Assembly: GCA_049611445.1 (NCBI GenBank)
Contig: JBMZAP010000001.1
Span: forward strand, 15,308-79,307
DNA length: 64,000 nt
Reading direction: 5' to 3'
Origin: Phycisphaeraceae bacterium
GTDB taxonomy: Bacteria > Planctomycetota > Phycisphaerae > Phycisphaerales > Phycisphaeraceae
Shown: piece by piece, positions 8,315 through 47,216 of the stretch
Numbering within the stretch: the stretch's first letter is position 1
Layout: each line of letters starts with the position of its first letter
Notes under the pieces: model-generated
The model's input: the letters and a program-made list of their open reading frames with translations, nothing else
The model's database searches: none
What the model was told of the DNA's origin: nothing
Translations under genes and position numbers: made by a program

Positions 8315-9784
8315 CTAATAGCTGTAAAGCTTCTTACCTAAGTCGTCGTAGTAATTGAATCGGATATCGACGTTGTCTTTGCCGGGCTCGACCTCAACCG
8401 TAATGAATCCACCGGTCGGCTCAGGCGAAGTAAAGAGTTGTGTCACCAATGCATCGGGGTCGGTACTCTTCGGGTCGCCGGGCTTTCGGCCCATCCGGCT
8501 GTTCTCGTCGTTGAGCGCACCACAGGAAAACTCGTTGGCTCCGCAGGGGTCGACCGAGTGGTACTGCCAGTGACGGTCGCCGCACATCAGGAACGTGTTG
8601 GCCCATATGCCGTGCTCTTTGCCCCAGGCTTTGAAAGCGTCGCCCTCATTGCGGAAGCCCTTGTGGTTGGTGTGGTTGTCTCGCTTGTAGCCGTCGTCCG
8701 GGCCAACCATCGGCGTCGGGCTGATGAGAATGCGGTACGTCGCGTCTGATGCGAGTATCGATTTCTTGAGCCAGACAAGCTGTTCATCACCCCACAGCGT
8801 TTTGTCGGGACCGTCGGCCTGCCTGTTCGGATCGCGGTAGTCCCGGCCTTCGACGAACCAGACCTGAAGGTCCTTGCTGACGCGGTGCGTGCGGTACGTC
8901 GGCGACTTGTCGTCATCCGGCCCAACGATCGGGACCTGCTCGCGGAAGGTCTTGATGCCAAGCTCGTGCGAGGGGAAACCGTCGCCTTCTGCATCCGAGT
9001 CGTTCGTGCGGTGGTCGTGGTCGTCCTTAAGCCAGTAGCCCGGCGCAGCCGCGTGCAGCGCACGCATACGCGGCATGTTGTTCTGCCGATGCCACTTTGC
9101 CCGCATGTCCGCCAGTGTCTTCACCTTTGGCTTCTTGTCGTAATAAACCACATCGCCCGCGTACACCACGAAGTCGGGTTCTAACTTTCGAACCGCTTTG
9201 GCTGCGGGGTACCCCTGCGCACGGTCGTCTTCCCAGTAGCCCTTGGTCTCGTTGCCAACGAACTTGTCGTAGTTCATACACGAGGTCAATGTGAAGCGGA
9301 TGGGGGCGGAGGTGTTCTTGCCGGGGTGGGTTTTGAACTCGCCCCGCGCGGTGTCCGCCCTCTGCCCGTCCAGGTTGCCCAGAGCCTCGGGTTGATGGAT
9401 CTCAGCGAAGCAGGTGTAACGCGTGCCCGGGTTCAGGCCCTTCAGCACCTTGCGGGCGATGTAGTCGTCCTTGGCGCGGACCTCGATCCAATCTGTCAGC
9501 TTGTAGGGCGTGTCGTCCTCATCGCTGGGGCGGTAGAAGAAGCGGACCCGACCGGTCGCGCCGGGCAGGTCGCCGTCACGCATCGCGTCACCGTCGTCGT
9601 ACGTGTTGCCATCAACCAGTTTCAACCCATCGGTAAGCCGGGCCTGCACGATCGCGGTTGTCGCCGTCACCTCGCCGATCATGATTCCCTGACCCAGTTG
9701 CGGCTCGAAGCGGTCATCTGCAAACACTGATGTACAGGCGCATAGGAAAACAAGGAGGAAGATCGGCAAGACGATTCGTTTCAA
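8315..9784 (-). CDS. PhoD-like metallophosphatase (alkaline phosphatase D family), secreted
   Basis: Signal peptide MKRIVLPIFLLVFLCACT. Motifs FVVYAGDVVYYD, WLKDDHDHRTND and MCGDRHWQYHS are typical of the PhoD-like calcineurin fold. Starts 4 nt after the ppk1 stop. Confidence 0.8.
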   Translation of the reverse strand: MKRIVLPIFLLVFLCACTSVFADDRFEPQLGQGIMIGEVTATTAIVQARLTDGLKLVDGNTYDDGDAMRDGDLPGATGRVRFFYRPSDEDDTPYKLTDWIEVRAKDDYIARKVLKGLNPGTRYTCFAEIHQPEALGNLDGQRADTARGEFKTHPGKNTSAPIRFTLTSCMNYDKFVGNETKGYWEDDRAQGYPAAKAVRKLEPDFVVYAGDVVYYDKKPKVKTLADMRAKWHRQNNMPRMRALHAAAPGYWLKDDHDHRTNDSDAEGDGFPSHELGIKTFREQVPIVGPDDDKSPTYRTHRVSKDLQVWFVEGRDYRDPNRQADGPDKTLWGDEQLVWLKKSILASDATYRILISPTPMVGPDDGYKRDNHTNHKGFRNEGDAFKAWGKEHGIWANTFLMCGDRHWQYHSVDPCGANEFSCGALNDENSRMGRKPGDPKSTDPDALVTQLFTSPEPTGGFITVEVEPGKDNVDIRFNYYDDLGKKLYSY

Positions 9785-19174: not shown

Positions 19175-21604
19175 CTAAACGAGCTTCAGCCCACGGCGAA
19201 GCGCCCATTCCAAAGTCAACAGGCCCAGCAGGACCAATAATGCGATCAGGGTGTTTGTGAGTGGCTGTCGCGTCTCGCTGGTCAATTCACGTGATCGATC
19301 GGGCACCAGCGCTTCAAGCTGGGCAAGATTGCTCAACTCGATGACCGCCCCGCCCGTCCCGTTCGCTAATTTGATCAGGCGGCCGTGGTCTGTTGCCGCG
19401 CGGGCGAGCTCCTGGGCAGGGTCGCGCACCTCGGCGGGTGCTTCAAGCTCCAGCGCGTCAAGCAGTGGCTCGTTGACGCGCAACACGAACCGGCCGGGCT
19501 GGTCGCTGCGCCAGTTTGCCTGATACACCGCGCGGGCGCCCGAGTCGAGGTCGCCCTGGAAGCCGGTCGGTCGCAGTTCGACCTCACTGACTTCCCGCAG
19601 GTCCTGCTCATCGGCTGAGTTCTGTGCGAACACTTGCACACGAACACTCTGCGGGGCGCTGCGGATCAGCGCGGGGTCGTCGATGATCAGTTCAACCAGT
19701 TGCGTCGCGCCCAGATCCACCGCGGTCGGGGATACAACAAAGCGCGCCCGGTCATCGACCTGTTGCAGCCGCGTTCGGCCGAGCTTGCGCATCAATTGAA
19801 TCCAGAACTGCTCGAAGTAGACTTCACCGCCGACTTTACGCCAGCGGAACGTCTCGTCGGTGCCGACGTAGATCACTTCGCCGCCGCCGAAGCGGTAGAG
19901 CACGACCAGGGGTGAAGGCTGGCCGGTTGCCGCGTTAACCATCCCGACAGCATGCGCGAGGGTTCGACTACCCGGCCGCAGAGTTCCAAGATCCTGTGCC
20001 CATCGGAATGGCGGCAGGTTGCTGGGCCATTCCGCCAAGGGTGAGCCAGCCTCGTCGCCACGCTTCAACGACAAACGCAACAGGTTCAATTCCTCGGCCG
20101 CTTCCGTCGGGACGATTGGCACCTCAAAACCCGTGTCCGGCACCAATCGGCCCACTGAAGAGGGCGTTGTCATCGGCAACAACAACTCAAGATCTGTTCC
20201 GGCATACAGGTTCGGCGTGTACCGGTCACCACCGATCCACAACAGGCCCGCGCGGCGCGTTGCAACATGCTCGCGAACAAGAGCCAATTGTTGATCCGAG
20301 AAGAAACGCGGGTGCACATCGCCAATTACGATCACGTCGTACGGCCGAATCTCCTCGGCGGTCAGAGGGAAACGAGACAACGGTGTATCGCCTTCCTGTA
20401 CAAATCCGCGGTCCGCATCAACCAAGAGGATCGACGAATCGATCGACTCTTCGCGCTTGAGCATCGGCACAAGGAACTTGTACTCCCAGCGTGCACGATC
20501 AACATACAGCACCTTCAGGGCCCGATCGACCATCGCGATGGAGACCGATCGGCTGTTGTTGTTGGTTGCGATCTCGGCCTGGATCTTCTTGACGCTGCCT
20601 TCGTACGACACCTCGGCACGCAGGTTCAGTTCACCGGCCAACTCAGATTGGGCCTGCAAACGTACGGGGCTGTTAAAGCCGTCCTCTTCGAGCGTGCGCT
20701 CGTCGACGATGTCGCCCGTGTCTTCGTCAATAAGACGGACAATCACTTTCGCTGGGTCGATGTTGAGTGATTGCGCCTCTCCAGGCACGATGTCCTGACG
20801 ACGGACGGTGACAGTCAGCGGCACAAGGTCGCCGGCGAATGCGCTGACCGGCGCATCGACACGCTGTACCGCGAGATCCAGGCGTGGCAGCGCACTACCC
20901 AAGGGCACACTGAAGACAGGGATGTCCTGTCGCGCGAGCTTTTCGATCGTAGCTTCACCGGTCGGCTGCGGTGATTGGCCGTCTCCAAAAAGTACCACAC
21001 CCGAGACTGTTCGCCCCGCAGCGGCCTGCAGGACCTGGTCCAAGGCGGTGCGCAGATTCGTCGCCTGGACACTGGGCTCGCTGAGCAGATTCTCACGACT
21101 GGGCGGATCGATCGGGTAAGCCTCGCGGTCATAGCCGAACCAGACAATATTGCGTGTCTCGCCAAGCTTTTCTTCACCAAATAGTTCGAGTTGGGTGGCG
21201 AGCGCGTTGCGCAACGCTTCGTCCCGGCTGATCGCGTTGCCATCGACCTGCGTGTCGGCGAAAGTCATCGATGCGCTGCGGTCGACCATGACCAGCAGCC
21301 AGTCTGATTCGGGGGTGATATCTGTCCGCACGACGGTTGGACCAGCCAGCAGTACCGCCAGTGCGATCAGCAACAGTGTCCGGAACATCGCCAGACCAAA
21401 ACGCGCCCAGCGCGCCCCTTCCATCCGCGCATAACTGCCGTGCGCGATCGCCAATGCAGCGATCACAATTAAAAGCCATGCCCAGCCAGGCAATGGATAC
21501 GTCCAACCCAAAGCGGTGTTCTCATCACCCAGCGACATCGAGGAGTCCAGGCCAAAAAGCCTGTCCAACAGGGATCCAAGTATTGGCGTCGCGCCAAAAG
21601 TCAT
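19175..21604 (-). CDS. membrane vWA-domain protein with a GATase1-like C-terminal domain (BatB/C-like)
   Basis: Trimmed to ATG 21604, which overlaps the upstream TGA (ATGA at 21601-21604). TM helices, then the vWA MIDAS-like LLVMVDRSASM, later YDVIVIGDV...LLWIGG (class-I amidotransferase-like fold) and a C-terminal TM LIALLVLLGLLTLEWAL. Confidence 0.8.
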   Translation of the reverse strand: MTFGATPILGSLLDRLFGLDSSMSLGDENTALGWTYPLPGWAWLLIVIAALAIAHGSYARMEGARWARFGLAMFRTLLLIALAVLLAGPTVVRTDITPESDWLLVMVDRSASMTFADTQVDGNAISRDEALRNALATQLELFGEEKLGETRNIVWFGYDREAYPIDPPSRENLLSEPSVQATNLRTALDQVLQAAAGRTVSGVVLFGDGQSPQPTGEATIEKLARQDIPVFSVPLGSALPRLDLAVQRVDAPVSAFAGDLVPLTVTVRRQDIVPGEAQSLNIDPAKVIVRLIDEDTGDIVDERTLEEDGFNSPVRLQAQSELAGELNLRAEVSYEGSVKKIQAEIATNNNSRSVSIAMVDRALKVLYVDRARWEYKFLVPMLKREESIDSSILLVDADRGFVQEGDTPLSRFPLTAEEIRPYDVIVIGDVHPRFFSDQQLALVREHVATRRAGLLWIGGDRYTPNLYAGTDLELLLPMTTPSSVGRLVPDTGFEVPIVPTEAAEELNLLRLSLKRGDEAGSPLAEWPSNLPPFRWAQDLGTLRPGSRTLAHAVGMVNAATGQPSPLVVLYRFGGGEVIYVGTDETFRWRKVGGEVYFEQFWIQLMRKLGRTRLQQVDDRARFVVSPTAVDLGATQLVELIIDDPALIRSAPQSVRVQVFAQNSADEQDLREVSEVELRPTGFQGDLDSGARAVYQANWRSDQPGRFVLRVNEPLLDALELEAPAEVRDPAQELARAATDHGRLIKLANGTGGAVIELSNLAQLEALVPDRSRELTSETRQPLTNTLIALLVLLGLLTLEWALRRGLKLV

Positions 21605-23946
21605 ACGCCACCCCCCGCTGTCGGCGTGGCGGAACTGCCACGCAGAGCGCCGAGCGCCCGCCCGATGACCGTCGGAGTACTGTGATCTGTCGCGTGGCTG
21701 AACCACCGTGCAAGGAACGTCTCCAGCAGCACAAGACCAAGCAGGATCCACAACAGCAGCATCGTCAGGTTCCGGCCCAGCGATGTTTTTGCAAGTACAC
21801 CACCAGCCTGCTGTCTTTCACTGAGGTAAGACCACCCCCCGAGTTCGTCGAGGAACAATTCCAACGCCCCCTGCCCGCCGACGGTATCACCCGCTGCACT
21901 GTCTGCGTTTACTGAGAGCAATCGCGGTGAACCGCCAACCGTGCCTTGATACACGCCTGGTTGATCGGCTGGCCCGCGCATCGAAACATCCTGCCCATCG
22001 CTTTGGACCAGTAATTGAATGGCTTTTTCACTTCCCAGAAGGTCCAACTCACCGACACCACGCCACGTACGGTTCAGGCTCGTCTCATGGCCTGCGATCA
22101 GAGACGCCTGGCCCGTGCTATTACCCAAGACACCACGCAGCGTATCGTGCATCAACGGCACGAACAGTGCACGGATCGGCAGGTTCGTAAACCGTGTATC
22201 CAGCGGCACCGCACTGAAAACCAGCGAACCGTCACCAATGCCGCGCTGAGCCAGCACGACCGGCTTTTCAACCTCTGGCACCAACACATCGTCGGTCTTC
22301 AGCACAACCCACTGGTCTTCCGCGTCAGTTGAAAGCGGCAGCCATGACTGCAACGACCACCAACCGAGCTTTTCGCGCCAGTCTGCCGCAAGGAACTGCA
22401 GCGCGTCGGGCGGAGCCGTGGTTTCATCAACACTGATGGATTGCTTCGTTGATCCTACTTCTGGTTCGTATCGAACGAGCGCGTCACCAAGGGTCCAGGG
22501 CAATTCAAATGAACGTGTCATGGTCTGTGCCCAGTCCGGCTCGGTCTCGAGTGCCGGCGTGAAGACCCAGACCAACCCACCACCCTCGGCAAAGGCCTGC
22601 AGGGTTTCCCAGCCTCGCAGCGTCAACTCGTCGGGACGCAGCACCACCGCAGCGTCGAACGACTCGATCGCCTCCATATTTACGGCTGTAGGCAACATCG
22701 TTGACAGCTCGAACGACCCGCTCGCGGCTCGCCCGCTCGGTGACAGTGCCGCGCGAACCCATTGCCAGGGCTCAAGCTCACCGGGATTCGGATTGATGTC
22801 CTGTTCGTTATCGACCAGCGCTACCTGCAGACGATCTCGCAGACGCACAACAGCCGTCGCCGAATCATCCGCCGACAGCACATCCAGCCCGGCATCACTC
22901 GCGTCAGCAACCAGTTCCGCTCGCACAATCAACTCGCGACCACTACCGATCAGTGCGTCGCTGGAGAGTTGCACAGGCAGATCAAAATTGGCGCTCTGTT
23001 CACGGGCCCCGCTGCCGAAGCGCACCTCGCGGGTCGTCTCAGCGAGGACCTGGTCGGAAGATGTTTCAACTTTGACCTGCAATTGAACCGTGCGGGCCTG
23101 TCCAATTGAACCGAAACGCCGCAAGACGACCTGCCCGCCAACAACGGTCGCGCCGGTGGACTCGGCGACGACCATCTGCCGACGCAGGCTCAGTGCCTTG
23201 ACCTGTATGTTGTCCGTGCCCTGTGGTGGCTGTGCGGTGACGATGGTTGCGCGTTCGCCAAGGTCTTCCAGTTCGGGTGGCAACTGTTGTTCAAAGTAAG
23301 GTGAGGTCGATGGAAAATCACTGAGCAGTACGATTACCGCATCATCGGTTCCCGTGGCGTCCATCGATGATTGCACAAGCGCCAAGGATTCAATCAGCTC
23401 ACCACGGCTGAAGCGCGGCTCGATTGATTCAATCGCTTCCTTCAGCTTGGCTGAATCCGAGGTCGGTTCGCCGAGCACTTGAACAACCGGGCGGGCCATG
23501 CGGAGGATTACGGCCCGGTCGCTCGCCCCCATCTCATCAATTACTGAAAGCGCCTGTTGCTTGTGCTGATCGAGCCGAGTGCTGCCTGCTTCGCGTGTCT
23601 GGCTTGAGAGCGCATCGTCAATGATGAGATAGACCACTCGTCCGCTGCTCCCGGTGAGCGATAACCCCGACTTTGAGCAGCCGCTCAAGACCGGACCGGC
23701 CAACGCCAGGCCCGCCAGCAAGACAACCATACAACGGACAAGTAACAGTAAAAGTTTCTCGAGTTGTAGCCGCTTACGCTGTTTCTGATAGGCCTCGATG
23801 AGGAATCGCATGGCCCCCCATGCCTCGGGTCGGCGTCGAAACCGGCTCATCAGATGGATGATGATCGGGATCGCAACCGCCGCCGCGCCGATCGCTGCGA
23901 GAGCGGGCGCGGTAAAGAGTCCTGCGGCTTGGGCGATCGTGTTCAT
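21601..23946 (-). CDS. BatA_N-domain plus vWA membrane protein
   Basis: N-terminus MNTIAQAAGLFTAPALAAIGAAAVAIPIIIHLMSRFRRR is the aerotolerance BatA N-terminal signature. vWA-like VVYLIIDDALSSQ. The ORF track starts at TTG 23961; I prefer ATG 23946, 12 nt after the DUF58 stop. Confidence 0.8.
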   Translation of the reverse strand: MNTIAQAAGLFTAPALAAIGAAAVAIPIIIHLMSRFRRRPEAWGAMRFLIEAYQKQRKRLQLEKLLLLLVRCMVVLLAGLALAGPVLSGCSKSGLSLTGSSGRVVYLIIDDALSSQTREAGSTRLDQHKQQALSVIDEMGASDRAVILRMARPVVQVLGEPTSDSAKLKEAIESIEPRFSRGELIESLALVQSSMDATGTDDAVIVLLSDFPSTSPYFEQQLPPELEDLGERATIVTAQPPQGTDNIQVKALSLRRQMVVAESTGATVVGGQVVLRRFGSIGQARTVQLQVKVETSSDQVLAETTREVRFGSGAREQSANFDLPVQLSSDALIGSGRELIVRAELVADASDAGLDVLSADDSATAVVRLRDRLQVALVDNEQDINPNPGELEPWQWVRAALSPSGRAASGSFELSTMLPTAVNMEAIESFDAAVVLRPDELTLRGWETLQAFAEGGGLVWVFTPALETEPDWAQTMTRSFELPWTLGDALVRYEPEVGSTKQSISVDETTAPPDALQFLAADWREKLGWWSLQSWLPLSTDAEDQWVVLKTDDVLVPEVEKPVVLAQRGIGDGSLVFSAVPLDTRFTNLPIRALFVPLMHDTLRGVLGNSTGQASLIAGHETSLNRTWRGVGELDLLGSEKAIQLLVQSDGQDVSMRGPADQPGVYQGTVGGSPRLLSVNADSAAGDTVGGQGALELFLDELGGWSYLSERQQAGGVLAKTSLGRNLTMLLLWILLGLVLLETFLARWFSHATDHSTPTVIGRALGALRGSSATPTAGGGV

Positions 23947-23957
23947 CAACGTCTGGG

Positions 23958-25013
23958 TCAACTCCCCCGGTTAATCATGGCGGTGCGTTTGGCCAGGAAG
24001 TGCGACAGCGGCGGCCCCAGGGGCTCGCTCGTGTTTAACAGGATGTGGTCAATCTGGAACTTCTGACAGGCGCGTTCCACCGCACGGTTATGTTCCTCGA
24101 CGACTTCAAGATATGCCTTGCGAATCGCGTGGGGGTCCAGCGGCAGTCGGCCTTCACCTTCCAGCCCGCGGAACTCGCTGACACTGCGGAAAGGAAAGTT
24201 AAGCTCGGCTGGGTCCATCACCTGGATCACCAGTGCATCGTGGCCTCGGTATCGCAGCCGGGCAAGGCCCCGCTCAATATTGGCCACGTCGTCAAACAGG
24301 TCACTGATGAGTACGACCAGTGCCTTGCGTCTCAGCTGGGCGAGCAGCTGATCGAACATGGTGCCAAGGTTGGTTCGCCCCTGGATCGTTTCACTGCTGG
24401 CCTTCTGTTCGCTCGGCTCACCAACCATCTGCGCATCGACCAGCGCGGTCGTAATATCGCGCCAGTGGTTCTGGTTGTTGCTCAGTCGTGTTGACTGCTT
24501 CACCTCGTCGGCGAACACGCCCAGCCCGACACGGTCTGCCTGATTGAGCGAAAGTTGAGCGAGTGCAACTACCAGTGCACACGCATGATCGATCTTTCGC
24601 CATCCCGCTGGGGGTTTGCCCTTGAAGTCGCGACCCGCCCCGCTGGGCGGATTGCCCTGATTCATCAGGTCAGCTTTGGCGCGGCTACCAGTGAACCGGG
24701 TGCCGGAGGTGTAGTCCATCGATGAGCTGACATCGACCAGCACCATCAGGTCGAGGTTCGTTTCGCGGACGTACTGCTTCAGGTACAGCTTGTCCGTCTT
24801 GGCCATCACCTTCCAGTCCAGGAAGCGCGGGTCGTCGCCGGGCACGTATTGGCGGTGCTGGGCAAACTCGACGGAGAAGCCCTGCATCGGCGAGCGGTGC
24901 ATCCCGGTCATCAGGCCGTCCACGATCATGCGCGCCCGCAGTTCCAAGGACCCGACGCGCGCGAGCGTTTCAGGGTCGAGGTAGCTGGTGAAACTGGCGG
25001 TTGAACTGGGCAT
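23958..25013 (-). CDS. DUF58 (vWA-like) protein, MoxR partner
   Basis: Motifs HRSPMQGFSVEFAQHRQYVPGDDPRFLDWKV and LMVLVDVSSSMDY are typical of DUF58. Located directly downstream of MoxR. Confidence 0.85.
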   Translation of the reverse strand: MPSSTASFTSYLDPETLARVGSLELRARMIVDGLMTGMHRSPMQGFSVEFAQHRQYVPGDDPRFLDWKVMAKTDKLYLKQYVRETNLDLMVLVDVSSSMDYTSGTRFTGSRAKADLMNQGNPPSGAGRDFKGKPPAGWRKIDHACALVVALAQLSLNQADRVGLGVFADEVKQSTRLSNNQNHWRDITTALVDAQMVGEPSEQKASSETIQGRTNLGTMFDQLLAQLRRKALVVLISDLFDDVANIERGLARLRYRGHDALVIQVMDPAELNFPFRSVSEFRGLEGEGRLPLDPHAIRKAYLEVVEEHNRAVERACQKFQIDHILLNTSEPLGPPLSHFLAKRTAMINRGS

Positions 25014-25093
25014 AAACGCGTGGGCTAAGAGGAATTGCTGAGGATGCGCTCTTCAGGTGAATCATCCGTGTATGCACGGATGCCAAGCACGTG

Positions 25094-26149
25094 TCAGTGC
25101 AGCACTGCTTCCGCCTGGGCGTCGCTCGCCGCATCGACCTTGATGTGATCCAGCAACTGCGTGATCAGGTCGTCGCTGCTGACGCCGTCCGCCTCGGCGG
25201 CAAAGTTCGTCAGGATGCGGTGGCGCAGGACGGGCAGGGTCACGGCCTGGATGTCCTCGGGCTCGACATGGGTTCGGCCGTGCAGCAGCGCATGAGCCTT
25301 GCCCGCGAGGATGAGGTTCTGGCTGGCGCGCGGGCCGGCCCCCCAGCGGAGGTAGTTGGCGAGGAAGTCCGGCCGGGGATCAGCTTCGCCTTTCTCGGGG
25401 AAACGCGTCGCGCGGACCAGCCTGAGCGCGTATTTCACAACGTGGTCTGCGACCGGCACATCGCGCACAACGTCCTGGATTTGCAGGACCTTTTCTGCGG
25501 TCAGCACGTGCTCGACACTCGCCTTGCTGCGTGAGGTCGTGCGCTTAACGATTTCAAGTTCTTCGCTTTCACTCGGGTAGCCGACCTTGATGTTGAACAT
25601 GAACCGGTCCAGCTGTGCCTCGGGCAGCGGGTAGGTGCCTTCCTGCTCGATCGGGTTCTGCGTCGCGAGGACGAAGAAGGGTTGAGGCAGTGCATGACGC
25701 ATGCCGCCGGCCGTCACGTGGTGCTCCTGCATGGCTTCGAGCAGCGCGGCCTGAGTCTTGGGGGGCGTCCGGTTGATTTCGTCGGCGAGGATGACATTGG
25801 CGAAGACCGGGCCCTTGACGAAGCGCATCTCGCGGTGGCCCGTGGTCTTATTCTCTTCAATGACCTCGGTGCCGGTGATGTCCGATGGCATCAGGTCGGG
25901 TGTGAACTGGATGCGGTTGAACTGGAGGCTGAGGGTCTGCGCGACGGTCGAGACAAGCAGCGTCTTGGCGAGACCGGGTACACCGACGAGCAGGCCGTGC
26001 CCCTTGGTGAACAGACAGATGAAAAGTTGTTCGATGACTTCGTCCTGACCGACGACGATCTGGCCGACCTGCTCCTTGAGCCCCTTGGCGGCCTGGCTGA
26101 CCTCCTTTACGAGGTCGGTGTTCGCGTCGGGTGGGGTCTGATCAGACAT
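25094..26149 (-). CDS. MoxR-family AAA+ ATPase
   Basis: Walker A GVPGLAKT, Walker [35 protein letters not shown], and the C-terminal lid [23 protein letters not shown]. Confidence 0.95.
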
Positions 26150-27253: not shown

Positions 27254-27272
27254 TAGTATAGCGGTGGCGCTT

Positions 27273-27608: not shown

Positions 27609-28976
27609 TCAGGCCTGCTGCTTGATCTGCTCGTTGAGCTGCTGGACTTGTGCAGCGTAGACCGGGTCGGTCTCTGAGCGGCCGTCGACGGTCTTGATCG
27701 AGTGCATGACCGTGGTGTGGTCTCGGCCACCGAAATATCCGCCGATTTCCTCGAGCGAGAAGCGCGTGTTCTTTCGGGCCAGCCACATGCAGATCTGCCT
27801 TGGCTCGGTAATCGACTTGTGCCGCCGACGCGACTGGAGGTCCTGCAGCTTGACGTTGTAGAAGCCTGTCACCGCATCGATGATCGCCTGCAGAGTGACC
27901 TGGTTGTTGCGTGGGGCGGGTGCTTCTGCGCCGAGCATTTCACGGGCCAGATCGATGCCGATGGGCAGGTTCTGCAGCTTGGCGTGGGCGATGAGGTTGG
28001 TGATCGCCCCTTCGAGTTCGCGGGCATTGGTGTCGATCCGACTCGCGATGAGTTCGATGACCTCGTCAGGCACCTCGACACTGCGCAGCTGTGCCTTGGC
28101 CTTGAGAATCGCGATACGAGTCTCGAAGCAGGGCTTGCCGACCTGCGCAACCAAGCCCCAGTTGAATCGGCTGATCAGACGCTCCTCGAGCTTGGGGATC
28201 TCGTTGGGCGCGGCGTCGGAGCTGAGCACGATTTGTTTGTTGTGCTGGTACAGCTCATTAAAGGTGTGGAAGAACTCTTCCTGGCTGCGCTCTTTGTCTG
28301 CGAGGAAGTGGATGTCGTCGATGACGAGCATGTCGACGTGGCGATAGCGTTGGTGGAACTCACTCATCTTGCCGCTTCGCACGCACTCGAAGAATTGATT
28401 CATGAACGCGTCGCAGGACACGTACAGGATCTGGTAGTCCGGGTTGGCGTTGAGGATCTTCTGACAGATCGCTTGCAGCAGGTGTGTCTTGCCCAGCCCA
28501 ACCCCGCCATGGATGAACAGCGGGTTGTAGGCCGTGCCTGGCTGGTCTGCGACCGCGACCGCAGCGGCATAGGCCAGGCGGTTGTTGGGCCCGGAGATGA
28601 AATTATCAAACGAGTAGTCCGGCGAGAGGACCATCTGGTCCACGTCGTGTTCGCCGACCATGTAATCGGGGACAGGGCGCGGGACGGCCGGTCCGCCGAC
28701 GGCTGTCGCCACAGGTTTGGATGAGCGAGTGGATTCACTGACAAACTTCACGCCGACCAAGGCCCCGGTGGCGTGCTGTGCGGCCTCGTTGAACGGGTCC
28801 AGACACTTGTTCTGCAGATAGTTCTGCTGCACGTTGGTCGCGGTCTGGATCTCCAACCACCCCGAGTCCATGCCGACCGGCTCGAGTTCTTCGAACCATT
28901 GTCGACAGATCGGTCCGTGGTTCTCACGGAGGTAGTCCATCAGACGCTGCCACTGCGCGCTGTCCAGTCGGGTCAT
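27609..28976 (-). CDS. dnaA: chromosomal replication initiator DnaA
   Basis: Walker A GGVGLGKTHLLQAI, Walker B MLVIDDIHF, sensor LSSDAAPNEI, and the C-terminal DNA-binding signature ITEPRQICMWLARKNT...IGGYFGGRDHTTVMH. I prefer ATG 28976, which has GGAG 8-11 nt upstream, over the track TTG 28994. Confidence 0.95.
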   Translation of the reverse strand: MTRLDSAQWQRLMDYLRENHGPICRQWFEELEPVGMDSGWLEIQTATNVQQNYLQNKCLDPFNEAAQHATGALVGVKFVSESTRSSKPVATAVGGPAVPRPVPDYMVGEHDVDQMVLSPDYSFDNFISGPNNRLAYAAAVAVADQPGTAYNPLFIHGGVGLGKTHLLQAICQKILNANPDYQILYVSCDAFMNQFFECVRSGKMSEFHQRYRHVDMLVIDDIHFLADKERSQEEFFHTFNELYQHNKQIVLSSDAAPNEIPKLEERLISRFNWGLVAQVGKPCFETRIAILKAKAQLRSVEVPDEVIELIASRIDTNARELEGAITNLIAHAKLQNLPIGIDLAREMLGAEAPAPRNNQVTLQAIIDAVTGFYNVKLQDLQSRRRHKSITEPRQICMWLARKNTRFSLEEIGGYFGGRDHTTVMHSIKTVDGRSETDPVYAAQVQQLNEQIKQQA

Positions 28977-29233
28977 CGCGGCTCCGAAAATCAATACACC
29001 ATTTTTAACCGTGGGTCACACTAAGGCCGGTCGGGCTGGGGCTGCCTCGGTTGGCCGTGAACGCACACGGCATAGAAATCACTAACGCAACGGTAAAGCT
29101 AACGGCTGCAGCACCACCGTGTCAATACAACATCTCCACATTTACCGACTTGACAAACGCACAACTACAGCGCCCGCGCTAACCCCACGAAAAACAGTCA
29201 TGTGAAGTGTTCGATAGCCCATGCGGTGTCAGC

Positions 29234-31589: not shown

Positions 31590-31653
31590 TTTGTATGATA
31601 TTGTTACGCTTCAGGGCCTGCTCAACCCTTGAAACGGTGGCAGCACTCAACCC

Positions 31654-33132: not shown

Positions 33133-33133
33133 G

Positions 33134-34168: not shown

Positions 34169-34201
34169 CCCAGCAGACATTCTGATTAAAACAATATTCT
34201 G

Positions 34202-35305: not shown

Positions 35306-35357
35306 AGTGCTTGTAGTTCGAGAGGATCAACTGACACATTGTAAGGCTATAAATAAA

Positions 35358-35376
35358 CCGTCGCGATCTGCGACGG
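35358..35376 (-). terminator. rho-independent-like terminator after the 35416..35877 gene
   Basis: CCGTCGC-gatct-GCGACGG stem-loop. On the minus strand it is followed by TTTATTT (plus-strand aaataaa at 35351-35357). Confidence 0.5.
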
Positions 35377-35415
35377 CTTATAAACGTTTAACTTATGCAG
35401 CAAGAGTGCGTTTGA

Positions 35416-35877: not shown

Positions 35878-36110
35878 GCCCCGGTTAGGCCAACACCACT
35901 TTAGCGAACCATCTCGGTCGGCGGCAAGGGTCTTAGCAGGGTTTTCTCAATCATTCAGCTGGCAGGCCGCCATACCGAGAGATAAGACCGATCTCGGCAG
36001 TAAAAGTTTCGGCGATTTCGGCATTTTTATGAAGTCCATCACGCTTTTATTGCGTTTAATCAAACATAAGGACTATGCTGAGCCAGGAATAACACGCCTG
36101 CGTACTACGT

Positions 36111-41977: not shown

Positions 41978-42868
41978 TTAAGGCTGAGCTTCCCAGGTGG
42001 GCGTCCACTTGAGTTCGTAAAGCTCTCGAGTAAGGATCGTCTCGGCGTGACCATCCATAAACGACACGTTGGTGTTCTTGTCGTGATGGTTGGTCAGGAA
42101 ATCGGTCATCATGCCATAAGGCCTGCCCCACGAAGGCTGAGAAGTGGGGGAAGGGAGCTCGCCATAGAGCTCTTCAGCGGGTTTGGGGTTGTTTTCTCGT
42201 GGCCAGCCGTCGACCCAGCTTGAATCGCTGAAGACATTGCGCTCACTCGGCGCGGAGATATTCGACATGATGTCGGGCCAACCGCCTTCTCCGAAGTAGG
42301 GGTTGCCGGTGCCGCCGGCATGTCTTACGCCGCCGGGGCCGCCGTCCGGACCGGATTGGATGGTCCCCTGGTTGTCGCCGAGCCGGGTATACAGATAGCC
42401 GTTGTAACCGTAGCTGCCTTGTGAGACGTTTGGTCTGGTATCAAAAAACCATGATCGATTTGGATCGTGCACAACCCAGCTGTTGCCCGCATCTTTCCAT
42501 GCTCGGGCACCCTGACCTTCAGCTTCAGGGCAGATATAGATCGGGCTTTCGACGTAGCGGATGTCGCCGATGATCCGTGTCGCGTTCCCATCGATGTACT
42601 CTTCGATCATGTGCGTCCAGAGGTGGCGCTCTCGAGTTCCGTTCGTGATGGTCTGGTACTCGGGAAGTACGCCGTTGCGGTCCGTGGTGAGCGAATAGAT
42701 CCCCGTCGCGTTCTGCCGCACGTTGGATAGGCACATCGATGTCCTTGTCGATTTTCGGGCGGCGCCGAGCGCGGGCAGCAGCAGCGCGATCAACAGCGCG
42801 ATGATGGAGATAACGACCAAGAGCTCGATGAGCGTGAAAGCTTTTCGGGACATTTGTGAGGTACCCAT
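41978..42868 (-). CDS. DUF1559 protein with a prepilin-type N-terminal cleavage/methylation signal
   Basis: [32 protein letters not shown] at the N-terminus. C-terminal [16 protein letters not shown] (H-X9-DG motif). Start at 42868 or 42853. Confidence 0.9.
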
Positions 42869-42925
42869 TTCTTTGATGCTTGAGTGCAGATAGACTGATC
42901 GGTGAGGCGCGTTGTTTGAAGCGGC

Positions 42926-43726
42926 TTAAGGCGGGTAGACCCATTCCTGGTGCCAGGTGAGATCCCACAACCTTTCGAGCCCCATTGACTCGGCGTGCCC
43001 GTCGACGAACCCGACGTTCTGTGTCAGCTTGTGACGGTCGATGACATATCGCTTCATCATCGACCCGGGCATGGTGCTCAGGTCGGTGAAGTCGGTGGGT
43101 TTGGGGTTGGTTGCGGCGGGCCAGCCATCGACCCAGGTCGCATCGAGGAAGATGGGCATTTTTGTCGTGTCGGCAACATTCTCAACGAAGTTGGGCCAGC
43201 GCTGTGGTTGTGAACCCGGGCCGTAGCCGAAAGGCCGGCGTTGATCACCTTTACTTGAGTAGAGGTAGCCGTTGATGCCGTAGCTGCCGCCGTAGATCCC
43301 GCCGCTGGGATTGTTGTTGTAGGCGTGGTACCAGGGCTGGTCGGGCTCACTGGCAAAGATGCCCCCGCCAAGCGCTTCAACCTGCTGGTCGCTGCGGTCC
43401 TGAGGCGCATCGGGGCAGAAGGTCTGTTCGTAGTACGCGATGGGGACCCCGCCACTGGTCTTTCGTGGCGACTCGCCGACGTATTCACGGATGGTTGCGG
43501 TCCAGAGGATGTCGCGCTGCAGGTCGCTGTAACGCATGAACTCGCCGTTGTTATCCACGGCGTAGTTGTAGTAACCCTGTGCCAGGGTGCGGACCTTGGC
43601 CAGGCACTCGGTCGTCCGTGCTTCTCGTCGCGCGGCACCAAGTGCAGGCAACAGGATCGCAATCAACAACGCGATGATGGAAATCACCACCAACAACTCG
43701 ATCAATGTGAAAGCTCGACGTAGCAT
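42926..43726 (-). CDS. DUF1559 protein with a prepilin-type N-terminal signal (paralog)
   Basis: Trimmed to ATG 43726 ([34 protein letters not shown]). C-terminal [17 protein letters not shown]. Confidence 0.9.
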
Positions 43727-43826
43727 CAGGGTCTCGAATGAGATAAACGAATCAAGCAAGCGCCGAACGGCCGCAAACCTAGATTCTACCCGACCAAGCC
43801 TGATTTTCCAAAACAACTTCTGTTTT

Positions 43827-45494
43827 TTAGCCAAGCGGCGTACAGAACCAACCACTCTCTCGGCCGAGGGAGACCTGCTGCAGCAGGTGCAGTTTGATCT
43901 GGCCGGCCAGCTTGCCGACGACCTGAGTGGTCTGATCGGCTCGGTCGGTGAGCAGGTGCAGCATGGGCTGGGTGTCGACAAAGTCGTGGTCACGCTGGGT
44001 GAGCGCGATCAGCTCGAGGTGGTCGTTGACCCAGTGCCCCGCTTCGATCAGTTGCATGACAGAGCGGTTGAAGTCCGCATCGGCCTGCGAAAGGATATGG
44101 ACGGTGCCCAGTGCATCAACGGCGAGTTGGGTATTGGGCTGATCGGGGATACGCGCTTCCAGCGGGACGGGGTTGTCCAGCGCGGCGGGCCCTTGCGCGA
44201 GTAGCGCGATGAGGTCCAGCTCTGGCTGGGGCGTGAGCACGCGCGGCGCCGGGGCGGGTCGCATCGGTGTTCCGACGTTGGCGGTTGTCGCAGGAGCCGG
44301 CTGTGCTGCTGGTTGCGGTGCGGGTTTGGCTTTAGGCGGGGCTTGTCGAAAGCGCGGCGCTGGTTCTGGACGCGAGGCCGCGGGCCTTGCCTTTGGTGCT
44401 GGCGGGAGCTTTGGCACTTTCGCCTTGGGCGGCGCGGGCGTCGGTTCGAGCGCGGGCTGTGGGGGTGGCGCCGGCTCGGGCGTGGGCAATGGCTCGGGGA
44501 CTTCCAGCGAATCAAAGAACGACACCAGCTTGGGCCAGAGCGCGACCGGGTCGGGGAAGCTGCCCAGATCGCGGACCTGCACCGGCTGCATACGACGCAG
44601 ATGACCAACCAGCTCAATCGGGTTGATCAGGTCGTCATACAACTCGTTACCAATGCGTTTGACGGCTTGTGCGGCGGCATCATCGTCGCTGCCCATGATC
44701 ATGACGCCGACGTTGCGGTCGGCCAGGCGCGGGTCGTTGTGCACCGCTGTTCGGAGCGATCGGCTTGCCGCGGCGATCGAAGCGTCGTCGCTGCCGCAGA
44801 GTATTGTCCAGTCGTCCACGGCCGCGAGTCGCGAGAGGGTCTGCGCGTCTGCGAAACTGTCAAAGCGGATGAGGATCGTACGGGCCGGGGTGCTGTCACT
44901 TCGGACAAGCGCATCGATCAGCCCGACGAGCCCGGTACGCCCGTTGCGCATGGGGGGGATACGCACGGTCGTTGCGGGTTGGCTTGGCGCAGGTTGTGCC
45001 TCGGCGCGCGGCTCGACCAGTTCGAGGTCGATCGCTTCCTCGCCGACATGCAGCAGTACAACGGGCCCTTCACTTTGTGCCAGCAGTTGTGCGTACTGTG
45101 TGAGCCATGGGCCGGACATCCCCGGCAGGTTGCCCATCAATACCGCTTCGAGCACCGCACGCGGCGCGGGTTCGTCGGTCACGCGAGGCGTGTCGGATTC
45201 CTCCTCCGTCACTGGATCCATTTCAACCAGTGTTGGGCCGACACCGAGTTCCTCAGCTTCGTCCTCGGTCAGCCGGAGCACGGGGTGGCTGTCGCCGAAT
45301 TCGTGGGCAGGCGGTTCGTCTGCGGGCGGGCTGGTGAGTGCGTCGCCATCACCGGTATGCCCATCACCGACTTTGGGTGAGAGCTTGATCGGCGCGGGGC
45401 CCTCGACCAGGCTGTCTTGTGTCGGGTCGGTCAGGTACAGTTCGGCCAGTTCATCGATCTGTTGCCGGCTGGTGGTGTCATCCATGACGGTCAC
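43827..45494 (-). CDS. hypothetical acidic/proline-rich protein, putative partner of the upstream ParA-like ATPase
   Basis: 555-aa ORF starting 15 nt after the ParA-like stop. Acidic N-terminus, a central alpha/beta-looking region without a Walker A ([39 protein letters not shown]), an ~80-aa P/A/K tract, and a globular C-terminus. No family recognised. Confidence 0.6.
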
Positions 45495-45509
45495 TGTTGA
45501 GTTGTTGGT

Positions 45510-47087
45510 TTACCCGACTTCGAGCACGCTGTTGAGCTCGCCGAAGGGGTTGGTCTCTGTCGCAGGGTTGTACGGGTCTTTCACCCACTGCCCATCGACG
45601 ACCAGGCGGTAGCGGTACCGGCCCGGCGGGATGTCGATGCAGGCCTGCCAGACGCCAAGCTCCTGGTGCTTGTTCATCGGGGTCGAGGCGGGGTTCCAGT
45701 TATTGAAGTCACCGGCGATGCCGACCTTGGTCACGCCTTCGCCCGGCTGGACGAAGAGCGTACCCTTATGGGTCTGGCGGAAGCCGTAGAGCTTGTTGAG
45801 TTTTTCCTGCAGACCGGGCCGCTGAACGGGCGGTTGCACAGCCTGCTGGATCGGTTGGATTGCGGCGTTGGGTGTCGGCGACGCGACAGCGACCTCTGGC
45901 TCGGGCTGCGGGGCTGGTGGCTGGGGTGCGGGCGCTTTCGGTACCGCGGGTGTCGCAGGCGCTGGCGCGGGGGCTGGTGTTGCCGGCGAAGCCACACCCT
46001 CTTCGGCTGCCTGCTTATTCAGCCGCTGGGTCAGCTGCGCAGTGCGGGCGGACAACTCGCGGGCACGCTCGACCAGTTCCGCGGCGCGGGAGACCGAGGC
46101 GTTGTCTTCTGCGATTGGCGCGGTGCGTGGCGACTGCGGCACCCGGCCGGGCATGGTCTGATTGACACCAACCTGTGCCTGCATCGCGATCTCGGAAGCC
46201 GAGGGCAAGGCCCGTTTGTCCGGCGGGTTGGCGATGAGCCAGTTGGTCAGTTCGTCGAAGTCCTTCATGCCGCGCGATGCACCGTCGTATTCGGTGATCG
46301 GCTGGCCGAAGCTGGCGGCTTCTTTGAGCTTGGCGTTGAAGTTGATGACCAGTGGCAGCACCTTGTCGCCGAAGTGCTTCTTGAGTTCGCTCAGGATCTC
46401 GCGTGCGAGCTTGGTACGGACGTCGTAAAGCGTGGGCAGCACCTTGAAGCGGACGTTGTGTCCGATCTTCGCGGTCAATGCCTCGATGGTTTGTTCCTGA
46501 CGATAGCTGCCCTGCATCGCGAAGTAGCCGGTCTCGACCGGGACGATGACCTCGTCGGCGGCACGCAGCGCGTTGAAGGTGAGTAGCCCAATGCTTGGCG
46601 GGCAGTCGATGATGCAGTAGTCGTAGCGGTCGGCGCTGGGTGCGAGGACCTGGATCAGTCGCCGATCGCGGTCTGCGGCGTTGGCCAGGCGCTGTTCGAT
46701 GCCGGCCAGCGCAACGGTTGAGGGTGCGAGGTCGAGTTGGCGGGAGATCTGCCAGACGATGTCAGCGATGCCAACCTGCCCGTCCATCCCGTGACGCAGG
46801 AGATCGGCGATCGACTGGCCGATCTGCTTTTCCGGCACGGCAAGTCCCAGGGCACAGTGACCCTGCGGGTCCATGTCGACAAGCAGTGTCTTATGGCCAC
46901 GCGCGGCGAGGGTGGCGGCGAGGTTGATCGACACCGTGGTCTTGCCGCAGCCGCCCTTCTGGTTGATGATCGCGATGGTGCGCACGTGGTGTGCCCCTTC
47001 GTCCGTGATGGGAGCGTCGGGCCGGTCCATTCCGTCCCATTCGCCTTTTCTAACGTCGGCGGGCTCCGCCCGGCCGGGTACATCCAT
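45510..47087 (-). CDS. ParA/Soj-type ATPase fused to a C-terminal AMPK-beta-like glycogen-binding (CBM48) module
   Basis: Deviant Walker A IINQKGGCGKTTVSINLA, LLVDMDPQGH, Walker B YDYCIIDCPPS. P/A/Q linker. C-terminal GDFNNW...GRYRYRLVVDGQWVKDPYNP...GELNSVLEV (nt ~45513-45770) parallels rat AMPK beta1 GSFNNW...HQYKFFVDGQWTHDPSEP...GTVNNIIQV. The start may be M1 or M20. Confidence 0.9.
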   Translation of the reverse strand: MDVPGRAEPADVRKGEWDGMDRPDAPITDEGAHHVRTIAIINQKGGCGKTTVSINLAATLAARGHKTLLVDMDPQGHCALGLAVPEKQIGQSIADLLRHGMDGQVGIADIVWQISRQLDLAPSTVALAGIEQRLANAADRDRRLIQVLAPSADRYDYCIIDCPPSIGLLTFNALRAADEVIVPVETGYFAMQGSYRQEQTIEALTAKIGHNVRFKVLPTLYDVRTKLAREILSELKKHFGDKVLPLVINFNAKLKEAASFGQPITEYDGASRGMKDFDELTNWLIANPPDKRALPSASEIAMQAQVGVNQTMPGRVPQSPRTAPIAEDNASVSRAAELVERARELSARTAQLTQRLNKQAAEEGVASPATPAPAPAPATPAVPKAPAPQPPAPQPEPEVAVASPTPNAAIQPIQQAVQPPVQRPGLQEKLNKLYGFRQTHKGTLFVQPGEGVTKVGIAGDFNNWNPASTPMNKHQELGVWQACIDIPPGRYRYRLVVDGQWVKDPYNPATETNPFGELNSVLEVG

Positions 47088-47216
47088 GTTTCGCGGGCGA
47101 CAGAGACGAATCCGATAAGAGCCCGCTTAACGAGGCTATCGGGGTTCATTGGGCCAAGGCTTGAGGATTTTGCGTCTGTAGACAGGCTCTGGGGCCTTTG
47201 CCTTACCATTTAAACG

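Follow-up and report, generated by a model that had tools for sequence, protein, structure and literature searches.

A Soj/ParA-type ATPase with a built-in AMPK-beta-like carbohydrate-binding module in Phycisphaerae: a candidate link between glycogen and chromosome partitioning

ParA/MinD ATPases position DNA, carboxysomes, chemoreceptor arrays, and division sites, and in all of these systems recognition is carried out by a separate protein adaptor on the cargo. In McdAB and other ParA/MinD cargo systems (PomXYZ, ParC-ParP, PpfA-TlpT, MipZ), the ATPase has a non-ParB partner, and it is this adaptor that recognises the cargo and stimulates ATP hydrolysis. Chromosomal ParA is bound by extra factors that shape its distribution, such as PadC-bactofilin in Myxococcus, TipN/PopZ in Caulobacter, and HubP in Vibrio. 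A storage polymer can also be attached to the chromosome for equal inheritance: PhaM, a small histone-like DNA-binding protein without ATPase, tethers PHB granules to the nucleoid. Modules of the CBM48/AMPK1_CBM fold family in AMPK beta, plant SEX4, and laforin-type proteins target cytoplasmic enzymes to glycogen or starch.

The current work describes a gene from a Phycisphaeraceae bacterium in which a ParA-type ATPase and a module of this family are fused (ParA-CBM), together with the partner gene that follows it. The two genes resemble the cargo systems in that a ParA-family ATPase with a non-ParB partner is proposed to use the nucleoid to spread a cytoplasmic body other than DNA; unlike in those systems, the putative cargo module is part of the ATPase itself. 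Glycogen in E. coli, where the fusion is absent, accumulates at the old pole and pushes the nucleoid aside (PMC12706056), and its unequal inheritance drives asymmetry and ageing (PMC12706056, PMC4836754).

Both genes lie on the minus strand (Table 1), about 17 kb from dnaA and the GC-skew minimum within the window, that is, the whole 64-kb stretch of DNA that was analysed. The open reading frames, the 15-nt gap between them, and each of the motifs quoted in an earlier note on this DNA were confirmed in the sequence. ParA-CBM contains KGGCGKTT (aa 44), DMDPQGH (aa 71), IIDCPPS (aa 159), GDFNNW (aa 459), YRYRLVVDGQWVKDPYNP (aa 491), and GELNSVLEV (aa 516), and the quoted 21-residue stretch of the partner was found at aa 119. 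Because of the family consensus and the coverage of homologs, the true starts of both proteins are probably internal to the listed frames. The ParA-CBM family consensus begins MRTIAIINQKGG, and the probable start, at codon 35, is preceded by an SD-like GAAGGGG. The maf-lpxK block beside parA-CBM is kept in relatives.

Table 1. Coordinates of the genes, domains, and intergenic region of the parA-CBM locus
Feature	Position	Strand	Basis and remarks
ParA-CBM gene	45510..47087	-	525 aa as listed; probable start GTG 46985, giving 491 aa
Soj/ParA-type deviant Walker A ATPase domain, aa 36-290	46218..46982	-	AAA_31, PDB matches, alignment
Invariant linker helix, aa 330-356	46020..46100	-	SRAAELVERAxxLSARTAxLxxRL, Leu heptad; conservation
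Pro/Ala/Gln-rich flexible variable linker, aa 357-425	45813..46019	-	Composition; poorly conserved, length-variable columns in the family alignment
AMPK-beta-type CBM48, predicted glycogen-binding module, aa 426-525	45513..45812	-	AMPK1_CBM, CBM_48, AMPK beta chains
Intergenic, divergent (promoter) region, parA-CBM/maf	46986..47216	.	Neither parS nor a repeat array found
Partner gene	43827..45494	-	555 aa as listed; probable start ATG codon 4, 45485
Partner N-terminal conserved peptides, aa 4-41	45372..45485	-	Helix MDDxRTRQxLDELADL[YF]LT; GPxPI[RK]LxPK
Partner central domain, aa 108-330	44505..45173	-	Predicted MinD/ParA-like alpha/beta fold; ten-residue stretch at the P-loop position
Partner Pro-rich, basic, variable linker, aa 331-420	44235..44504	-	36% Pro; pI 11
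Partner C-terminal domain, aa 421-555	43830..44234	-	Predicted alpha/beta fold; invariant H466, H513, H536; acidic, pI 4.7

The ATPase domain was matched in Pfam profile searches by AAA_31 (E 2e-48; 164.9 bits against a cutoff of 27) and by CbiA (E 7e-21; 74.9 bits against 25.4). With the NCBIfam equivalog models ParA_partition, BcsQ, and MinD, ParA-CBM scored under every cutoff; it is thus not an equivalog of these subfamilies. Among proteins of known structure, the domain matched M. xanthus ParA (PDB 8RAY, E 1e-50) and Thermus Soj (1WCV, E 3e-41), two chromosomal ParAs with which it shares 40-41% identity, while McdA was a much weaker match (E 3e-15). The deviant Walker A sequence K44GGCGKTT, with its signature lysine, is invariant in 34 family members and in 73/73 complete ORFs of the species loci. 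D71-M-D73-PQ (Walker A', MxParA D60) and IIDCPPS (Walker B) align with 8RAY and 1WCV and are likewise invariant. The family differs from chromosomal ParABS in its invariant P-loop Cys (KGGCGKT).

In the alignment, R224 of ParA-CBM corresponds to B. subtilis Soj R189, a basic residue for non-specific DNA binding, and K253 corresponds to R238 of M. xanthus ParA; both are invariant. The role of R238 in DNA binding was shown with the R238E substitution (PMC12462528). The ParB pocket of the same protein, consisting of L150, G151, L152, and L192 (PMC12462528), aligns with I166, G167, L168, and I208, in which I166, L168, and I208 are conservative substitutions, and the pocket positions are near-invariant across the family. 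Judged by alignment, the candidate DNA-binding and ParB-pocket residues are therefore retained.

The C-terminal module scored 50.2 bits with AMPK1_CBM (gathering cutoff 26.8, E 3e-13) and 33.9 bits with CBM_48 (cutoff 22.4, E 4e-8) in Pfam, and the last 100 aa matched the crystal-structure chains of the AMPK beta-1 and beta-2 CBMs at E 1e-12. Together with the ATPase profile matches, these scores, which lie well outside what chance would give, confirm the fusion of a ParA with an AMPK-beta-like CBM that had earlier been read by eye. The glucan-contact residues of AMPK beta-1 in its beta-cyclodextrin complex are W100, K126, W133, L146, and N150; alignment to AMPK beta places W464, R494, W501, F515, and N519 of ParA-CBM at these positions. 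In the 80 species loci, W464 is W in all 78 sequences aligned there and W501 is W in 80/80, while R494 is R/K, F515 is F/Y/L/H, and N519 is N/D, each in 80/80. Conservation or conservative replacement at all five positions was likewise found in 120 homologs, so that both stacking Trp residues noted earlier are kept in orthologs. The module should thus bind alpha-glucan or glycogen. It shares fold family and contact residues with AMPK beta, SEX4, and laforin-type modules and differs in being bacterial, in being fused to a ParA ATPase instead of a kinase scaffold or phosphatase, and in the disordered tether of about 135 aa between the domains.

It is very unlikely that the module binds another glycan or a protein in vivo, serving some other cargo or a role outside positioning. 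CBM48-fold and E-set domains are capable of binding proteins, the family has many invariant surface residues outside the glucan site, and glycogen genes show no genomic linkage to the operon. Such a role, however, fits poorly with the constancy of the five contact positions across the family and with the best sequence matches of the module, which are all alpha-glucan binders (AMPK beta, pullulanase, SEX4, GlgB); ParA-CBM is, moreover, a cytoplasmic protein, and glycogen is the obvious alpha-glucan in that compartment.

Compared with chromosomal ParAs, ParA-CBM has about 235 extra C-terminal residues, which form a conserved helix, a flexible linker, and the CBM48. The linker, of about 135 aa, had been described as a Pro/Ala/Gln stretch; it does contain such a segment, and also the helix, in which S333, R334, A335, A336, E337, L338, R341, A342, and L345 are invariant in the family alignment. 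This helix is a candidate site for contact with the partner or for dimerisation. Where a partner gene is present, the helix and the partner's conserved N-terminal peptide occur together in 54 loci, both are missing from 4, the helix alone is seen in 2, and the peptide alone in none; these counts are confounded by phylogeny. The partner peptide, with a predicted helix at residues 8-21 and basic residues, is a candidate ParA-contacting or ATPase-modulating region by analogy with the ParB, ParG, and MinE peptides (PMC12462528).

The fusion is present in at least 555 species genomes, and of the 80 inspected almost all are Phycisphaerae. Partner homologs, with identity down to 24%, lie directly 3' of the ParA-AMPK1_CBM gene in 5/5 cases; viewed from the ParA side, the partner directly follows the fusion in 67 of 78 informative species loci. 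The two genes are thus syntenic in relatives. The remaining 11 loci, from other Phycisphaerae clades, have the fusion with no adjoining partner. Thus, the adjacency on which the earlier note based an ATPase-stimulating adaptor holds, and the partner is not an obligatory adaptor.

Chromosomal parA genes differ from parA-CBM in their context as well: parA-CBM is not beside parB and shares its operon with the gene of an unrelated protein. A search of the 64-kb window for ParB, with a Spo0J probe against all ORFs of at least 60 aa and with Pfam against the larger ORFs, gave no match, nor was a parS site found there with up to 3 mismatches; this locus accordingly has neither an adjacent cognate parB nor a nearby parS. 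Phycisphaerae, as a lineage, do have a canonical ParB, whose N-terminal motif for binding ParA is intact (LG[RK]GL, kept in 117/120 homologs), and they have parS sites as well. In 8/8 loci examined, this parB is solitary and is not accompanied by a parA. It lies 3.7 kb (two genomes) or 22 kb from parA-CBM across three MAGs, and about 447 kb away in D3-23. The description of this ATPase as an orphan is therefore right for its neighbourhood and wrong for the lineage, and a canonical parB/parS partner elsewhere, the finding that would speak against a separate system, is at least partly in evidence in the intact ParB, the parS sites, the 8/8 solitary genes, and the 3.7-kb distance. A second, CBM-less Soj-type ParA cognate to this ParB may also be encoded elsewhere in the genome.

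With such a second ParA serving ParB-parS, the two genes could be a dedicated orphan system that positions glycogen granules only, in which ParA-CBM recognises the granule and the partner stimulates the ATPase as an adaptor. The tight and widely conserved operon, the conserved partner peptide with basic residues as in ParA activators, and the absence of an adjacent ParB from the window and most loci, and of parS from the window, are in keeping with this proposal. The ATPase, however, shows a level of identity typical of chromosomal ParA orthologs and retains the pocket for ParB, parB stands without its own parA in the 8/8 loci, the fusion occurs in 11 loci with no adjoining partner, and no recognisable cargo-binding module was found in the partner with Pfam or NCBIfam. 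A dedicated system is consequently unlikely. Since it is Soj-like (~40% identity) and keeps the DNA-binding and ParB-pocket residues, ParA-CBM is more probably a chromosomal ParA that carries an additional module than the extra, glycogen-dedicated ParA first proposed.

The GT3 glycogen synthase reported for the window is present at 2730..4934 (PF05693, E 9e-212). It lies 41 kb from the operon. Of the relative loci fetched, only 1 has a glycogen synthase nearby, and no conserved linkage of the operon to glycogen-metabolism genes was found among them. The suggested tie between synthase and operon is thus not borne out, and the gene tells us no more than that the organism is probably able to make glycogen.

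The explanation preferred here, offered tentatively and with somewhat less than even confidence, is that ParA-CBM is the chromosomal ParA of this lineage, that glycogen is tethered through the CBM to the cycle of the nucleoid-bound ParA, and that the partner is a lineage-specific regulator. The 40-41% identity, the invariant motifs, the conserved glucan-contact residues, the solitary ParB-parS, the distance to dnaA, the adjacency of the partner, the co-occurrence of helix and N-terminal peptide, the presence of a glycogen synthase, and the polar, nucleoid-displacing glycogen of E. coli speak for this explanation. The possible second Soj-type ParA, the separation of parB in D3-23, the lack of conserved linkage to glycogen genes, and the weak fold calls for the partner (TM 0.42-0.5) count against it. 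Domain architecture, residue conservation, synteny, and the solitary parB are observed, while binding to glycogen and to the nucleoid, the pairing with ParB, and the part played by the partner are inferences. As an ATP-bound dimer, ParA-CBM would bind the nucleoid non-specifically, and its CBM48, on a long flexible tether, would bind alpha-glucan; nucleoid-bound dimers would in this way catch glycogen particles through their CBMs. Glycogen would be held on the chromosome, and spread and inherited with it, rather than coalescing at a pole. ATP hydrolysis, probably triggered by short N-terminal peptides of partner proteins, would free and recycle ParA. With ParA-CBM cognate to the solitary ParB-parS, one ATPase would have two cargos, and the co-operonic partner would be a regulator or adaptor specific to this lineage, perhaps docking on the conserved helix of the linker. 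Sequence comparison thus suggests a physical coupling between stored glycogen and the machinery that partitions the chromosome in Phycisphaerae. Such a tether would resemble PhaM in function and, unlike PhaM, would be ATP-cycling.

In this arrangement the CBM is on ParA itself and not on an activator-coated cargo, so that a classical Brownian ratchet is not obviously generated, and static tethering or sequestration is equally possible. Glycogen might then be a landmark, sink, or metabolic signal instead of a cargo. Through the CBM, glycogen bodies, such as polar ones, would park or sequester the chromosomal ParA (cf. TipN/PopZ, bactofilin-PadC, and HubP), or the CBM would report the state of the carbon store as the AMPK CBM does. 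Either way, the ParA gradient would be shaped and segregation, replication, or division would be coupled to energy reserves; to our knowledge, Phycisphaerae divide without FtsZ. All evidence for a chromosomal ParA applies here too, the nearest relatives of the CBM are regulatory AMPK beta modules, glycogen forms polar, nucleoid-excluding condensates in E. coli, and the position of the CBM on ParA fits sequestration better than a ratchet. The long flexible linker, however, argues against tight allosteric coupling, and we regard this alternative as improbable. The partner, or glycogen itself, may be analogous to the ParA-sequestering factors, with no sequence or domain similarity: the partner combines a predicted Walker-A-less MinD/ParA-like fold with a nuclease-like one.

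A wider form of these ideas is possible, if doubtful: a single Soj-type ParA would handle both the chromosome, by way of the solitary ParB-parS, and glycogen bodies, by way of the CBM, or glycogen bodies would be a spatial sink that polarises segregation, and the pseudo-ATPase partner family would tune the cycle. If true, this would be the first ParA with a polysaccharide cargo or landmark and the first direct molecular link between carbon stores and chromosome partitioning. More generally, a polysaccharide-binding module built into a ParA would bring a storage polymer that is neither protein nor DNA within reach of this positioning mechanism, and would give a molecular answer to how bacteria control the inheritance of glycogen. 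If ParA-CBM is also the chromosomal ParA, segregation would be coupled directly to carbon reserves in a poorly understood bacterial class. In the literature searched, no prior description of the fusion or of its partner was found, in agreement with the earlier note, which knew of no ParA system described for glycogen granules.

The partner is, as first noted, an acidic and proline-rich protein (pI 4.6; 12.8% proline). Pfam and NCBIfam profile searches gave no match, and it has no similarity to McdB, the partner in McdAB. It defines a large family of 1,389 clusters at 50% identity (E<=1e-3) that is absent from Pfam and NCBIfam and wholly unannotated. The AlphaFold model of the central domain has pLDDT >90, and its top Foldseek matches are FlhG, FleN, HypB, MinD, and ParA (E 1.5e-4, probability 1.0, TM only 0.42-0.45). 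The domain has no Walker A GK[ST], and the letters at the P-loop position are near-invariant. Alignment with the ParA family by hhalign gave a probability of 0.1%, that is, no sequence-profile homology. The pseudo-P-loop proposed from the sequence is thus upheld as a fold and not as homology, and the predicted structure points weakly to a domain that is MinD/ParA-like in fold and is not a member of the MinD/ParA-like NTPases. The model of the C-terminal domain (pLDDT 88, pTM 0.84) matched Shedu, NucS, and EndoMS in Foldseek (E 8e-3, TM ~0.5), a weak PD-(D/E)xK likeness with no clear (D/E)xK motif; the position of that site reads D460...H466-L-L-x-R.

The fusion of a ParA ATPase to an AMPK-beta-like carbohydrate-binding module (CBM), which an earlier note had read from this DNA by eye, is confirmed by Pfam at both ends of one product. 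The N-terminal part of this protein, here called ParA-CBM, matches AAA_31 (E 2e-48) and CbiA (E 7e-21), and its C-terminus matches AMPK1_CBM (E 3e-13; 50.2 bits, with the gathering threshold at 26.8) and CBM_48 (E 4e-8), which places it in both the ParA/Soj and the CBM48/AMPK1_CBM families. The two reading frames were found on the minus strand with 15 nt between them, and all of the motifs quoted earlier are at their expected positions. Membership of the ATPase in the BcsQ or MinD groups was rejected; the NCBIfam equivalog models ParA_partition, BcsQ, MinD and RepA all remained under their cutoffs. Family consensus, a query coverage of 93-94% by homologs and a Shine-Dalgarno-like GAAGGGG point to the GTG of codon 35 (46985) as the probable true start, which makes the protein 491 aa long. 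The start of the partner, the product of the gene directly downstream, is probably the ATG of codon 4 (45485).

Features of ParA-CBM and its partner (reading frames as listed)
Feature	Coordinates	Strand	Residues	Description
ParA-CBM ORF	45510..47087	-	525 aa	
ParA-CBM ATPase	46218..46982			
Partner ORF	43827..45494	-	555 aa	
Partner N-terminal peptides				conserved; MDDxRTRQxLDELADL[YF]LT and GPxPI[RK]LxPK
Partner central domain			aa 108-330	
Partner linker				basic, Pro-rich, variable
Partner C-terminal domain	43830..44234		aa 421-555	

When the last 100 residues of ParA-CBM were searched by sequence against solved structures, the CBMs of AMPK beta-1 and beta-2 were on top (E ~1e-12), followed by pullulanase, SEX4 and GlgB. 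W464, R494, W501, F515 and N519 align with W100, K126, W133, L146 and N150 of AMPK beta-1, which we take to be its cyclodextrin contacts. These five positions are kept or conservatively replaced in all of the best 80 species loci and also in 120 homologs. A ligand other than glycogen appears improbable to us for this module.

The ParA + AMPK1_CBM architecture is present in all of the best 120 homologs, whose named sources are Phycisphaerae or Planctomycetota and which are labelled merely as "AAA family ATPase" or "chromosome partitioning protein". A scan of one genome per species, with the alignment of this family's CBM as query, gave matches in at least 555 genomes. The best 80 of these loci are almost all from Phycisphaerae (Phycisphaeraceae, Algisphaera, Mucisphaera, Poriferisphaera, Sedimentisphaerales), and among them each of the 73 ORFs with a complete 5' end joins the CBM to a deviant Walker A ATPase. 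Between the two domains, the Pro/Ala/Gln linker described earlier does exist as a variable tract, but it is not featureless as a whole: an invariant helix, SRAAELVERAxxLSARTAxLxxRL (aa 330-356), lies ahead of it. The family also carries an invariant Cys (aa 47) within the P-loop KGGCGKT, where Val is usual in ParAs, and an invariant His-Cys (aa 77, 78) immediately behind DPQ; these residues might form a metal or redox site where the two subunits of the dimer meet.

Chromosomal ParAs are the closest solved relatives of the ATPase domain, first Myxococcus xanthus ParA (MxParA, PDB 8RAY; E 1e-50, 40% identity), followed by Thermus Soj (E 3e-41, 41% identity) and Helicobacter pylori Soj; the carboxysome ATPase McdA reaches only E 3e-15. 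By alignment, ParA-CBM retains both the residues for non-specific DNA binding and the ParB pocket. The basic residues R189 of Soj and R238 of MxParA correspond to R224 and K253, and L150, G151, L152 and L192, which belong to the hydrophobic pocket for the ParB peptide described in MxParA (PMC12462528), correspond to I166, G167, L168 and I208; the family keeps all of these positions invariant or almost so.

The earlier note had called this ParA an orphan and proposed a dedicated system for glucan granules. It was right that no parB adjoins the gene, as it would in a classical parAB operon. No canonical parS with up to 3 mismatches occurs in the 64-kb window, and no centromere-like repeat arrays surround the operon, just short chance repeats in two copies. 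Against a dedicated orphan system stand the likeness to chromosomal ParAs and a solitary ParB of the lineage with a ParA-binding motif, and we regard such a system as unlikely. In two MAGs, a Spo0J probe of all fetched DNA found a canonical ParB (ParB_N + HTH_ParB) at a distance of 3.7 kb from parA-CBM; this parB shares the hldE-lpxK-maf block with parA-CBM, has no parA of its own, and the N-terminus of its product reads RPSRLGRGLSSLM. This ParA-binding motif is present in 117 of 120 homologs of ParB from the lineage. parB is solitary at each of the eight loci inspected (L014 2-1006, L061 2-985, L087-L089, L092-L094), and six of these carry one or two palindromic parS sites (TGTTCCACGTGGAACA and close variants), placed inside parB or a short way upstream. 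The distance to parA-CBM is ~447 kb on the complete D3-23 chromosome and ~22 kb on one contig. Conservation of ParB with an intact ParA-binding peptide implies that some ParA is required, and ParA-CBM is the only Soj-type candidate seen in the loci inspected. On this comparative evidence, ParA-CBM is probably the chromosomal ParA, though a second ParA may exist elsewhere in the genome.

The solitary parB of Phycisphaerae often adjoins a small HisKA/HATPase_c gene and mraZ. The sole parS-type palindrome found near the operon, TGTTCCACGTGGAACA, is in one MAG (L084, ~2498) and lies ~300 bp beyond the 3' end of the partner gene. When metagenomes were scanned with a single ParB sequence, only two loci came back, neither relevant.

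The partner is acidic and rich in proline (pI 4.6, 12.8% proline), as described earlier, and has no match in Pfam or NCBIfam. A word-indexed search gave 99 homologs, every one a hypothetical protein, and an exhaustive profile search gave 1,389 clusters at 50% identity (728 at E<=1e-30) with a uniform end-to-end architecture. A Rosetta-stone fusion was sought in unusually long homologs (P0391, P0395, P0436, P0458 and others), and neither a ParA nor a Pfam domain was found in them.

Synteny of the two genes is strong in both directions. All five partner homologs followed to their loci sit immediately downstream of a ParA-AMPK1_CBM gene, including a borderline, 24%-identical homolog in a different neighbourhood. 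Conversely, the partner lies directly downstream of the fusion in 67 of 80 species loci, and two more end at a contig edge. The remaining 11, from other clades (including Poriferisphaera, strain ZRK32 and Sedimentisphaerales-type), have unrelated downstream genes: DUF1559/N_methyl, P_proprotein, AP_endonuc_2 or nothing recognisable, and no ParB-like gene. It follows that the fusion predates the partner or has a wider distribution. In Poriferisphaera WC338 (L048) and strain ZRK32 (L059) the linker helix is kept with no partner gene adjoining; the partner may be encoded elsewhere or lost.

The partner consists of four parts: N-terminal peptides, a central domain, a linker and a C-terminal domain. 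Across partner-bearing loci, the linker helix of ParA-CBM and the partner N-terminal peptide are both present in 54 and both absent in 4, with the helix only in 2 and the peptide only in 0. Contact between the two is possible from this co-occurrence, which shared ancestry confounds. Both folded domains are predicted by AlphaFold with pLDDT of ~90 or above. The top structural matches of the central domain are ATPases of the MinD/ParA class, namely FlhG, FleN, HypB, MinD and ParA (E 1.5e-4, probability 1.0, TM 0.42-0.45), and a near-invariant 10-residue sequence without lysine occupies the P-loop position. The proposed pseudo-P-loop thus holds at the level of predicted fold but not as sequence homology: a profile-profile comparison with the ParA-CBM family gave a probability of 0.1%, so that the partner was rejected as a ParA homolog and the idea of a "pseudo-ParA" is one of predicted fold only.

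The C-terminal domain weakly resembles the PD-(D/E)xK nuclease folds Shedu, NucS and EndoMS (E 8e-3, TM ~0.5), with no obvious catalytic motif. DNA binding by this domain was judged unlikely because it is acidic (pI 4.7) and the fold match is weak. Invariant H466, H513 and H536 each belong to an "xHLL" motif, with the three motifs on neighbouring beta-strands of the predicted structure, and may form a metal-binding or catalytic site.

These findings, all in silico, are combined in a tentative model, the best supported of those considered, whose chance we put slightly below even. ParA-CBM, probably the chromosomal ParA, would bind the nucleoid as a Soj-type ParA while its tethered CBM catches glycogen, which would be kept on the nucleoid, spread across it and passed on with it. 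N-terminal peptides of ParB and/or the co-operonic partner would trigger ATP hydrolysis and so recycle ParA-CBM; the partner would be a lineage-specific regulator, possibly docking on the linker helix. ParA-CBM would work similarly to McdAB-type adaptor systems, yet it is not a member of them: the partner is unrelated to McdB, and putative cargo recognition lies within the ATPase. Any ratchet model meets a caveat here: the cargo-binding module belongs to ParA itself, not to an activator bound to the cargo, and this arrangement suggests tethering or sequestration more readily than directed transport. Alternatively, the ParA gradient may be shaped by glycogen acting as a landmark, a sink or a metabolic input and not as cargo, which we consider unlikely. 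A clear physiological rationale for linking ParA to glycogen comes from Escherichia coli, which lacks the fusion: its glycogen forms condensates at the old pole that push the nucleoid aside and pass unequally to the progeny (PMC12706056). Neither a ParA-CBM48 fusion nor a ParA system for glycogen was found in the literature, including a comprehensive alpha-glucan review; the earlier note likewise knew of no ParA system for glycogen granules.

GT3 glycogen synthases of the PVC group are already known (PMC11046441). The window encodes a eukaryote-type one (2730..4934, plus strand; PF05693, E 9e-212) 41 kb from the operon; its match starts at residue 146, which implies an N-terminal extension or a later start. 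Linkage of the operon to glycogen genes is weak, since a GT3 synthase adjoins it in one fetched relative locus only, a Phycisphaeraceae MAG (L016 8471-9253), where the partner gene is immediately followed by a fragment of such a synthase (phmmer versus the window enzyme, E 4e-39). A second storage-polymer locus consists of polyphosphate kinase 1 (9788..12034) directly beside a PhoD-like phosphatase (8315..9784), both on the minus strand.

The chromosomal replication origin is very probably inside the window: dnaA (27609..28994, minus strand; Bac_DnaA, E 5e-68) adjoins the cumulative GC-skew minimum at about 22000-29000, which puts the operon ~17 kb from the probable origin. This proximity is documented for this window only and was rejected as a general trait, no relative locus having dnaA in its flanks.

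Two DUF1559/prepilin-type (N_methyl) genes (41978..43993, minus strand) lie directly downstream of the partner. The ORF 42926..43993, as listed, overlaps the partner 3' end by 167 nt, so its true start is probably an internal Met right ahead of the N_methyl motif. At 21601..26149 (minus strand) genes for BatA/VWA, DUF58 and MoxR-type AAA_3 ATPase proteins follow one another as an operon of the aerotolerance type; ahead of it are two large ORFs (858 and 1248 aa) that match nothing in Pfam. The region ~31650-36000, encoding CP_ATPgrasp_2, Alpha-E and a Peptidase_Mx/zinc-ribbon protein, is low in GC (0.50-0.53 vs ~0.60) and may be acquired DNA.
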